Part shown: positions 33,636-34,784 of the stretch, in pieces
How positions within the stretch are numbered: the stretch's first letter is position 1
Layout: the number at the start of each line of letters is the position of its first letter
Origin: a virus
Strand: one strand, 5' to 3'
Length of the DNA: 58,183 nt
Virus record (IMG/VR): IMGVR_UViG_3300034069_000553
Coordinates: 1 to 58,183 of that record
Notes under the pieces: generated by a model
Told to the model about the DNA's origin: nothing
Database searches by the model: none
Seen by the model: the letters and a program-made list of their open reading frames with translations, nothing else
Position numbers and translations under genes: made by a program

Positions 33636-34784
33636 ATGAAGACCATCGACCGTGTGAAAGCCCTGATCGGCGACCAGATCAACGTGCCGGCCGACACCAT
33701 CGCCGACGACGCCCCGCTGGCTGGCATGGGCATGGACAGCCTCGACCGCGTGGAACTGGCGATTGCGGTGGAAGAGCACTTCCACGTCGTCGTGCCGGAC
33801 GATCACATCGAGAGCGTGGATCTGGGCACGCCCTGCGGCATGGCCGGCTATGTGGACAAGCTGCTGAGCGAGAAGGCGGCGGAGCCACTCGGCGTGCCCG
33901 CTGAAGGGTACATCATCCGTGATAACACCTTCGCGGGAAACACCATCTCGGACAACCACATGCAGATCATCGCCCCGGTTATCGCGGAGCAGCCCATCAC
34001 GCGCGAAGAGATGATCCGCCGCGGCGTGGACGCCGACGAGGGCACGGCCATGAGCGTCATCGCCAAGCTGGGCTGGCCGACCGCGGCGAACCCGCAGGGC
34101 ACCGATCCCACGCACATTCTGGTGCCGGTGCCCGAGAAAATCGACTATGCCGCCATGTCTCCCGGCGAGATGCACTCGGCACTGTCTGGTGGCGCAGAGC
34201 CAATCGGCGGCGACGGCATGAAGTGGGTCGAGGCGTTCATGCAGATGGCGTCCGTGGCGGGGCCACTCGGCCGGGCAATGCGCGCCTATCCCGATGGCGA
34301 TGCGCAGCGCGAACTTCAAGGGATCATGCTCGGCTGGTTCGCCAACGCCATCATGGCGGGATACGATCACGCGCGGAACAACCCCGAAGCCATCGACGGC
34401 TCGGCGCTCGACAGCATCGCCTTTACCAAGAAGCCGGTGCAGATCGAGGCGGTGGAGTTCATCGGCGTCAAGGTCGAGGACGGCACGGCGCGCGCCCACT
34501 TCAACCGACCTGACCTGCCGCAGTGGCTGCTGGATGCGTTCGCCGAGGCGGACGGCGATCCCGGCGCCGCGTGGCTGCGCCACGATGGCAGCGTCGCCGA
34601 CGCGCCCACCGCGCCGAACGTGTTGGTCATCGGTACGCTTGAAGGCGAGCACATCGCGTCGCCAGGTGATTGGATCATCCGCGGCGTGGCCGGCGAGATT
34701 TACCCTTGCAAGCCGACCATCTTCGCCGCGACCTATGACCCGGTGCCGGCCGACGACGGTGCCGCGGCGCACGAGCCGCTGTGA
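33636..34784 (+). CDS. acyl/peptidyl-carrier-protein domain fused to phage domains (382 aa)
   Basis: The N-terminal 80 aa align with ACP: [56 protein letters not shown] (Ser codon 33738-33740). Also [11 protein letters not shown] and a C-terminal [25 protein letters not shown] module. Confidence 0.75.
   Translation: [382 protein letters not shown]

Follow-up and report, generated by a model that had tools for sequence, protein, structure and literature searches.

An acyl carrier protein domain fused to a PGDYG-like beta-domain in a variable terS-terL island of a phage genome

The fusion gene and its domains

The viral sequence IMGVR_UViG_3300034069_000553 of IMG/VR (58,183 nt, analysed in full and called the window in the following) contains an open reading frame (ORF) whose product, here termed the window protein, combines an acyl carrier protein (ACP) domain with modules that also occur in other phage proteins. 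The ORF is located between the terminase genes terS and terL, spans positions 33636..34784 on the plus strand, codes for 382 residues and ends with a TGA codon; a preliminary description of the locus had quoted it with a translation that is identical to ours. It is a real gene, because a Shine-Dalgarno sequence GGAG (33626..33629, plus strand, read from the sequence) lies 6 nt 5' of the ATG at 33636, the G+C content at third codon positions (GC3) is 86%, the coding score is the highest in its neighbourhood, and the homologs start at the same methionine with the common N-terminus 'M(N/K/T)T(L/I)DRVK'. At second codon positions (GC2) the value is 45%, and the genome as a whole has a G+C content of 64%; the bias towards G- or C-ending codons that had been claimed for this frame is thus evident. 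A gene caller based on codon usage also chooses the ATG at 33636. A longer frame opening at 33378 was discarded, since its additional 5' part lacks conservation, the homologs begin at the methionine of 33636, and the GGAG ribosome-binding site is positioned there. All parts of the ORF described below are on the plus strand.

Residues 1-82 (33636..33881) constitute an ACP domain, a four-helix bundle. The Pfam family PF00550 (PP-binding) matches residues 5-58 with an E-value of 4.6e-11 and 43.2 bits when the full protein is searched, and residues 1-90 alone score 46.7 bits; the gathering cutoff is 20.8, and a profile match of this kind had been set beforehand as a test of the assignment. PHROG 5934, annotated as 'acyl carrier protein', matches residues 3-80 (E 2.7e-10). 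A phmmer search of the PDB sequences gave an E. coli-type AcpP as the top match (E 2.5e-8) and reproduces the alignment with E. coli AcpP that the preliminary description had given; the sequence identity between the two domains is 34-40%. In the AlphaFold2 model, residues 1-82 have predicted local distance difference test (pLDDT) values of 94-97, with helices at 3-15, 35-49 and 66-82 and a short helix III. Foldseek places this model on E. coli AcpP crystal structures with template modelling (TM) scores of 0.82-0.90 and root mean square deviations of 1.2-1.5 Å. Because the Pfam and PHROG profiles, the PDB sequences and the predicted fold all point the same way, the N-terminus is a genuine domain of the ACP superfamily. 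It is divergent, being neither a housekeeping AcpP nor a Dlt carrier: The nearest NCBIfam models are those of housekeeping AcpP (TIGR00517, NF002148-NF002151), whose equivalog cutoffs (66-106) are not reached, the best scores being 45.8 and 44.8 bits for cutoffs of 92 and 70.45, respectively; the DltC model NF003464 gives 13.1 bits (E 0.073) with a cutoff of 68.

The serine of the D34-S35-L36 motif, which is the predicted attachment site of 4'-phosphopantetheine, is encoded at 33738..33740, exactly where it had been claimed, and helix II of the AlphaFold2 model begins at this residue. Ser35 is invariant in the homologs P0001-P0008 and is retained in 14 of the 15 ACP-bearing relatives, whose ACP domains are 42-57% identical to that of the window protein. 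Helix II (DSLDR.EL....EE.F), by which AcpS and all client enzymes recognise an ACP, is the best-conserved stretch of the domain; D34, S35, L36, D37, R38, E40, L41, E46, E47 and F49 are invariant in 8 homologs. A signature following helix II, 'PD.DVD.PE[LM]GT..G.A.Y[IV]', is particular to this ACP subfamily, and most ACP-bearing relatives have insertions of 10-25 residues in loop 1.

The C-terminal globular part of the window protein is a beta-domain (residues about 262-368; 34419..34739), which was modelled with pLDDT values of 90-97. Its near-invariant motif reads G-D-W-I-I...G-E-x-Y-P-C-K-P-x-I-F..T-Y and includes Cys358 (codon 34707..34709) within Y-P-C-K-P; conserved aromatic and Lys/Arg residues are W346, Y356, F363, Y367, K265, K359 and R349. 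In agreement with the preliminary description, which had noticed a C-terminal module of small phage proteins, 'GDWIIRG...YPCKP' is found at residues 344-360, and the domain matches PHROG 419 (E 3.8e-25) as well as PHROGs 1810 and 4502, all of unknown function. Among the GenBank phage records, 562 contain the domain. A profile built from the complete fusion was run against 1.84 billion cluster representatives and matched 26,154 proteins at E<=1e-3, and no fewer than 9,390 of the clusters reach E<=1e-10; among the listed top 150 matches, it is mostly the beta-domain of stand-alone proteins of ~100 aa that is matched.

Judged by intermediates and a shared predicted fold, the beta-domain belongs to the PGDYG superfamily. 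This assignment is made because six of 148 relatives reach the Pfam family PGDYG (PF14083; best E-value 5.9e-14), which P0247 and P0251 carry; the window protein itself gives no match to PF14083 at E<=1 (gathering score 27 bits). A Foldseek search of BFVD returned entries named 'PGDYG protein' with E-values of 9e-4 to 3e-3 and a probability of 1.00, together with many uncharacterised phage proteins. Searching the literature, we found no paper that mentions the PGDYG family.

Two further observations concern this domain. In the 3,743-residue giant protein P0101, the C-terminal half of the PGDYG-like motif is matched about 28 times in tandem, 'GKKGDWLVTGPQGEKYII.GDKFNKLYK' alternating with 'AGDLKVTQPDGSISSIKKDIFDQTYS'; the repeats lack the cysteine of the motif and are followed by a P-loop domain (GLSGSGKST). 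They suggest that 'GDW...GE.Y....F..Y' is a unit complete in itself, which can be repeated. Moreover, proteins consisting of part of the helical module described below and a PGDYG-like domain have been annotated as 'nicotinate ribosyltransferase', namely Serenabean gp61 (L032, 2902-3441) and a protein of Arthrobacter phage Qui (BFVD A0A5B8WIM2). We rejected this label, as neither sequence nor fold nor literature supports it.

The ACP domain is separated from the remaining modules by a tether of about 35 residues (about 83-119; 33882..33992), which is predicted to be disordered (pLDDT <50 at residues 87-120) and is unalignable among homologs. It is followed by a mobile mini-module, 'VIAKLGWP...PTHILVPV' (residues about 120-166; 33993..34133; pLDDT 54-64), a unit of ~45 aa with the consensus 'I[TS][RK][ED]E[ML][IL]RRG...V[IM]xKLG[WF]...PTH.LV'. 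Its place varies: It comes after the ACP in the window protein, between the helical and the beta-module in P0002, and at the C-terminus in P0008. The same motif is present in P0100, P0106 and P0214, and the mini-module gave no family or structure match. The helical module, 'DGMKW.EAFMQ' (residues about 168-250; 34137..34385; pLDDT 60-79), contains the WFANAIMAG segment that had been pointed out before (residues 233-242). It is conserved in P0002-P0007, follows the beta-module in P0009, P0010 and P0015, occurs without a beta-module in P0102, P0104, P0128 and P0131, and has no match in Pfam or the PDB. Residues 369-382 form, together with the TGA stop, a low-confidence C-terminal tail (34740..34784; pLDDT about 57-61), whose ending '...AHEPL' is common to P0004-P0006.

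Recurrence of the ACP-beta fusion

Seven further proteins (P0002-P0008) pair PF00550 with the same C-terminal modules, and the fusion gene is found at the same place in six sister phage contigs (L001-L006). The claim that the ORF is a true fusion and not the result of a missed stop codon is borne out by this common architecture. The order of the modules is ACP-mini-helical-beta in the window, ACP-helical-mini-beta in L001, ACP-helical-beta in L002, L003, L004 and L006, and ACP-beta-mini in L005; ACP and beta are the only modules that are constant across these seven loci. A sensitive profile search detected looser relatives as well, among them ACP-helical (P0102, P0104), ACP-helical-other (P0109) and ACP-degenerate beta (P0138) proteins.

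The reverse order, in which the beta-domain precedes the ACP, is found in P0171/P0240 (180-182 aa) and P0318 (192 aa). The ACPs of these proteins are 53-63% identical to E. coli AcpP and 28-45% identical to the ACP of the window protein; when scored with a hidden Markov model (HMM) of the latter's subfamily they reach 32-35 bits, subfamily members 97-136. For the beta-domain of P0171, unfused relatives exist at 84-86% identity, and for that of P0318 at 72-73%, whereas the two beta-domains are 56% identical to each other. Since the reverse-order beta-domains are closer to unfused relatives than to each other, and their ACPs are nearer to AcpP, the simplest reading of these sequence comparisons is that ACP and beta were fused three times independently: in the clade of the window protein, in P0171/P0240 and in P0318. 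The phage backgrounds of the two reverse-order fusions are unrelated, one being an antirepressor/methylase region and the other an early region with RecT and PD-(D/E)XK.

ACP genes are rare in phages: A search of 50,697 GenBank phage records gave 8 weak matches to the ACP domain of the window protein, and the ACP-beta architecture was not found in these records. Repeated independent fusion in both orders, in spite of this rarity, suggests that the ACP and the beta-domain work together. One candidate for a phage ACP (H58) was rejected. It is an acpP match in CAKLQH020000007.1 (L118, 'Acinetobacter phage MD-2021a') and lies amid rpmF-fabD-fabG-acpP, scpAB, thiD and ribB; the contig is host bacterial DNA labelled as phage. 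The sister record CAKLQF020000011.1 contains an identical ACP match.

The terS-terL island and the remainder of the genome

The island harbouring the fusion gene is bordered on the left by a terS-like DUF2280 gene (31558..32064, plus strand; PF10045, E 4.3e-16), which is conserved in L001-L006, L008 and L009, and on the right by the N-terminal ATPase half of terL (Terminase_6N; 35426..36259, plus strand; PF03237, E 1.6e-10), which is 73-78% identical in the sister phages. The location between terS and terL that had been given previously is therefore right in outline. In the window, three other genes precede the fusion gene within this gap and two follow it, and in all sister loci carrying the ACP fusion its gene is likewise located between DUF2280 and Terminase_6N.

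The content of this gap is hyper-variable among the sister phages. When ORFs of the gap from seven loci, 34 in total, were bundled and scanned with Pfam, Acb3 was identified in four of them (E 3.9e-32); in L002, L003 and L004 its gene directly precedes that of the ACP fusion. Acb3 is an inhibitor of the CD-NTases of the CBASS defence system (10.1101/2025.07.23.666291; 10.1101/2025.06.06.658234). Further cargo of the sister islands comprises a Tad2-like domain (E 2e-24), a C-5 DNA methylase and three SNase nucleases. The gene of a beta-domain protein also directly follows that of a 'cyclic nucleotide sequestering protein' in Curtobacterium phage Serenabean.

In order to characterise the usual surroundings of the beta-domain, 150 neighbours of stand-alone beta-genes from 80 viral loci, some of them near-duplicates, were compiled. 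The most recurrent neighbours were Phage_min_cap2 (five times), scaffold (three times), Mu_F (twice), terS, terL and portal; an Acb2/Tad1 hairpin occurred twice. Gene 5 of SPP1 is a beta-domain gene as well and lies between terL and portal; a literature search on SPP1 genes 4 and 5 yielded nothing useful. Because head and packaging genes recur most often among the neighbours, and given the position of SPP1 gene 5, a terminase-adjacent position is typical for the beta-domain. In the window, the fusion gene is part of an uninterrupted plus-strand block that extends from terS through terL to portal. A promoter and terminator scan of this block found none, which speaks against a separate transcription unit for the fusion gene.

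The preliminary description had noted the absence of a phosphopantetheinyl transferase, an acyl-ACP synthetase and a ketosynthase from the genome. Our Pfam scan for loading enzymes (E<=0.01) covered 60 gene products and residues 536-4421 of a giant ORF, and within this range the statement holds, the exception being the unscanned 535-residue N-terminus of the giant ORF, which wraps around the ends of the window. Neither a phosphopantetheinyl transferase (ACPS or Sfp type) nor an AMP-ligase, a ketosynthase or an acyltransferase was found; the same scan detected no MBOAT, SGNH or GNAT family and no Fab, Lpx or polyketide synthase (PKS) genes.

An SGNH protein, a GNAT and two adjacent small membrane proteins had been put forward as acyl-handling partners of the ACP. 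The small membrane protein of 68 residues encoded directly downstream (34781..34987, plus strand; two transmembrane segments) has no family match and a homolog in L004 only; its GTG start codon overlaps the stop codon of the ACP gene (GTGA), possibly allowing translational coupling. The 702-residue protein (37441-39549) considered to be an SGNH protein and the presumed GNAT of 158 residues (53653-54129) match nothing in Pfam or NCBIfam. The 702-residue protein contains motifs that resemble SGNH blocks III and V by eye (GAPIND, DGTHLS), and no profile supports them. It has only its N-terminal 50-105 residues in common with the sister equivalents, the C-termini being different; identity to the equivalent in L005 (8593-8904) is 49%, and with the equivalent in L001 (13139-14512), a GDSL lipase, it shares an N-terminus of 49 residues (BLASTP, E 0.027). 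Exchangeable tail fibre or depolymerase modules typically show such a combination of a conserved anchor with a variable head.

The window is a complete circular genome of 58,155 bp, because its first 28 nt (1-28) are an exact copy of the last 28 (58156-58183), a signature of circular assembly. As a megablast search of the region 30-42 kb against 50,697 phage genomes found no match, the phage is novel at the DNA level; its capsid protein shares 39-47% identity with the capsid proteins of Pseudoalteromonas phage vB_Pun_Y3, Xanthomonas phage DES1, Stenotrophomonas phage StenR_269 and Pseudomonas phage Rollin. The gene terL is split: The Terminase_6N ATPase (35426-36259) and the Terminase_6C nuclease (39554-40300) are about 3.3 kb apart, and four cargo ORFs (36271-39549) lie between them. 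Throughout the closest clade (L001-L010, L015) the halves are separated by 0.27 to 6.8 kb, and in the more distant relatives L011-L025 they are adjacent. Scans for Rfam families and tRNAs gave no match, and the lack of a matching Rfam intron model argues against an intron as the explanation for the split. Each sister phage that has retained the ACP fusion carries a different cargo between its two terL parts; the annotated cargoes of L001-L004 are all different, with the GDSL lipase in L001 only and unrelated genes elsewhere.

The giant ORF (56607-58183 joined to 29-11717, across the circular junction) codes for a 'polyvalent protein' of ~4,421 aa; in residues 536-4421, FtsK-gamma, N6-methylase/Eco57I, SF2 helicase, ART-PolyVal ADP-ribosyltransferase and LPD38 domains were recognised. 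It is one of the DarB-type polyvalent proteins, which are packaged and injected to counter restriction. The early/middle region comprises 11714-17076 (minus strand) and 17180-31471 (plus strand). The families assigned to it are known as a list from the bundled scan, namely DUF1064, ERF recombinase, RNase_T exonuclease, DUF2303, Ros/MucR regulator, phage metallopeptidase, HNH, Endonuclease VII and SNase; only DUF1064 was placed, at 11714-12082.

Interpretation and comparison with known systems

The explanation we tentatively favour, although we rate it somewhat below an even chance, is that the host modifies the carrier part of the window protein, that this carrier is tethered to the beta-domain as its partner, and that the protein acts in host takeover or counter-defence. 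A host AcpS-type transferase would phosphopantetheinylate Ser35 and thereby generate the holo form; a host enzyme is proposed because the phage genome has no detectable transferase and because the serine and helix II are under constraint. The tethered holo- or acyl-carrier would then act in cis with the beta-domain by presenting either its thiol/thioester arm or the face of helix II to the conserved Y-P-C-K-P pocket, and the near-invariant G-D-W-I-I...T-Y motif would mark the predicted binding or active site. The fusion protein would thus be island cargo for host takeover or counter-defence and would serve neither virion structure nor housekeeping lipid synthesis nor Dlt-like acylation. This role is suggested because the hyper-variable terS-terL island holds known anti-immunity genes in sister phages. 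A further step, which we consider doubtful, would generalise the idea: The PGDYG-like domain may be an effector that depends on ACP or phosphopantetheine, and its stand-alone versions may act on host AcpP in holo or acylated form. Here the three independent ACP fusions are taken as Rosetta stones.

Several findings weigh against the tethered-carrier explanation. The modification of Ser35 is a prediction, and P0109 has a tryptophan in place of the serine, so that the arm may not always be needed. The inter-domain geometry of the AlphaFold2 model is unreliable, as the predicted TM score (pTM) is 0.44. A solved relative of the beta-domain was not found, either by a Foldseek search of the PDB with the helical and beta parts of the model (best E 0.3, TM <0.25) or by comparing a profile HMM of 40 beta-domains with the PDB sequences (best E 0.26). 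The invariant residues of this domain are mostly glycine, proline and aromatic ones, a composition as compatible with a structural motif as with an active site. Besides ACP, the beta-domain is fused to crAss001_48, Tad2-like, DUF551, WDGH, dUTPase, MazG, Acb2/Tad1 hairpin and gp49_66 domains; because it joins so many unrelated partners, the ACP may be one of many passengers on a beta scaffold. No beta-gene was found within 6-9 kb of the stand-alone ACPs (Brevundimonas phage Bajun, MT835740). With regard to counter-defence, the evidence is indirect, being an association with Acb3 and Tad2: Searches with Pfam, PADLOC and NCBIfam revealed no recognisable anti-defence gene in the window's own island, stand-alone beta-genes neighbour head-morphogenesis genes more often than sponges, and a literature search combining ACP with anti-phage or anti-defence functions found no direct link. 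PADLOC, whose library models defence and not anti-defence proteins, gave no match for the window protein and seven neighbours.

In a rival explanation, the ACP is a decoy on a scaffold. It would mimic AcpP and use its acidic helix II to bind and block or hijack a client of the host ACP such as SpoT/Rel, a lipid enzyme or a complex of the SMC/MukB type; the beta- and helical modules would anchor or oligomerise it, and the arm would be dispensable. E. coli MukBEF requires AcpP and is a phage target. That helix II is the best-conserved part of the ACP domain, that P0109 has lost the serine and kept the rest, that the beta-domain, as would be expected of a scaffold, has many unrelated passengers including oligomeric sponges and dUTPase, and that the gene is located in a counter-defence island all agree with such a decoy. 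We nevertheless regard it as unlikely: A pure surface mimic would not need the serine, which nearly all ACP-bearing relatives have kept, and a scaffold role leaves the abundance of stand-alone beta-proteins of ~100 aa unexplained.

Alternatively, the beta-domain itself may be a sponge that binds a nucleotide immune signal in the way of Tad2 or Acb2, with the ACP as an accessory passenger. Nucleotide binding would be in keeping with its conserved aromatic and Lys/Arg residues, Acb3 is encoded by the adjacent gene in sister phages, and beta-domains both neighbour such sponges and are fused to Tad2-like (4 of 148) and Acb2/Tad1-hairpin (1 of 148) domains. However, only these 5 of the 148 multi-domain members contain a known sponge domain, Foldseek and the profile comparison with the PDB indicate no likeness of the beta-domain to known sponges in fold or sequence, and the three independent ACP fusions are left unexplained, which makes this alternative distinctly unlikely.

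We consider it quite improbable that the window protein is associated with the phage head, i.e. made late, loaded into capsids and delivered with the DNA in order to act at the start of the next infection. Position is the sole basis of this explanation, which draws on the uninterrupted terS-terL-portal unit, the absence of promoter and terminator signals in it, the head-morphogenesis genes as the most frequent neighbours of stand-alone beta-genes, and the location of SPP1 gene 5 between terL and portal; the giant ORF indicates in addition that the phage encodes a protein of a packaged and injected class. The remaining beta-ACP fusions, however, are found in early or replication regions, and some loci of the neighbour census are near-duplicates. 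Even less credit can be given to an auxiliary metabolic ACP, which would supplement fatty-acid, lipid A or polyketide-type synthesis of the host during infection. Its nearest profile models are indeed housekeeping AcpP types, and stand-alone phage ACPs have been annotated as auxiliary metabolic genes (AMGs; PMC5463345), but with about 45 bits the domain is far below the AcpP equivalog cutoffs, it is always fused to non-metabolic phage modules, most relatives have the insertions in loop 1, and the gene resides in a variable island and not in a metabolic cluster, in a genome without detectable Fab, Lpx or PKS genes. Least likely, and to our mind hardly credible, is the proposal of the preliminary description that the carrier acylates a surface polymer together with the SGNH, GNAT and membrane proteins in a Dlt-like manner, for although the GDSL lipase of L001, the SGNH-like motifs and the overlapping two-transmembrane protein can be cited in its favour, its defining parts and the co-conservation of its partners are missing: The ACP does not resemble DltC, DltA-like and DltB-like genes are lacking, neither presumed enzyme matches an SGNH or GNAT profile, the likeness of the 702-residue protein to the lipase is confined to the N-terminus, and the genes found between the terL halves are entirely different in the sister phages that possess the fusion.

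If the carrier and the beta-domain do function together, thousands of orphan phage proteins would gain a function, and a carrier of a prosthetic group would take part in the conflict between phage and host. Should an ACP-dependent effector exist, it would represent a widespread, unrecognised strategy by which phages tap or disable the acyl-carrier system of the host, possibly for counter-defence or host shut-off. If the joint function is false, what remains is a curious but ordinary shuffling accessory protein. Phage ACPs have long been annotated as AMGs, and the PGDYG-like domain is among the commonest orphan domains of tailed phages; the three ACP-PGDYG fusions, one of them in an Acb3/Tad2-like slot, are a concrete and testable link between both orphan groups. 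For a specialist, the recurrence of this pairing is unexpected. What is new is that an ACP is tethered to a PGDYG-like domain, that this arrangement arose several times independently, and that it is found in a counter-defence island.

A comparison with known systems places the window protein between several of them. With AcpP (PF00550, TIGR00517) it has the four-helix fold, the serine of D-S-L at the N-terminus of helix II and the acidic recognition helix in common; in contrast to the free AcpP of 78 residues, its ACP is a domain of a 382-residue protein and has no fab operon context. The stand-alone phage ACPs (PHROG 5934/4154), such as ORF32 of Erythrobacter phage vB_EliS-R6L and BAJUN_00790 of Brevundimonas phage Bajun, are likewise members of the ACP superfamily that are encoded by phages without a phosphopantetheinyl transferase. 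These are single-domain proteins of ~80-95 aa and are 34-41% identical to the ACP of the window protein; in the literature, phage ACP genes carry the remark 'function unclear' (PMC5463345). The Dlt system also involves a small carrier, and in one sister phage (L001) an esterase-like gene is located within 3 kb; yet the carrier is not DltC-like, there is neither a DltA ligase nor a DltB MBOAT protein, and the esterase is not co-conserved.

PGDYG proteins (PF14083; PHROGs 419, 1810 and 4502; the products of SPP1 gene 5 and mycobacteriophage U2 gp11) resemble the beta-domain in motif, size (~100 aa), predicted fold and usual location near packaging genes. They are usually stand-alone or N-terminal, whereas the beta-domain of the window protein is C-terminal to an ACP. 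The carriers of PKS, nonribosomal peptide synthetase (NRPS) and fatty acid synthase (FAS) megasynthases, known as 'swinging arms', are comparable with respect to the flexible linker to a presumed partner and the recurrent two-domain fusion; unlike them, the window protein has no synthase, adenylation, condensation or thioesterase domain, its partner is an orphan beta-domain of 100 residues, and the coupling between the two would be a putative one. With regard to the anti-defence proteins Tad2, Acb2 and Acb3, finally, the window protein contains none of their domains, but it occupies the island that in the sister phages also holds Acb3 and Tad2-like genes, and in other phages its beta-domain is fused to Tad2-like or Acb2-hairpin domains.

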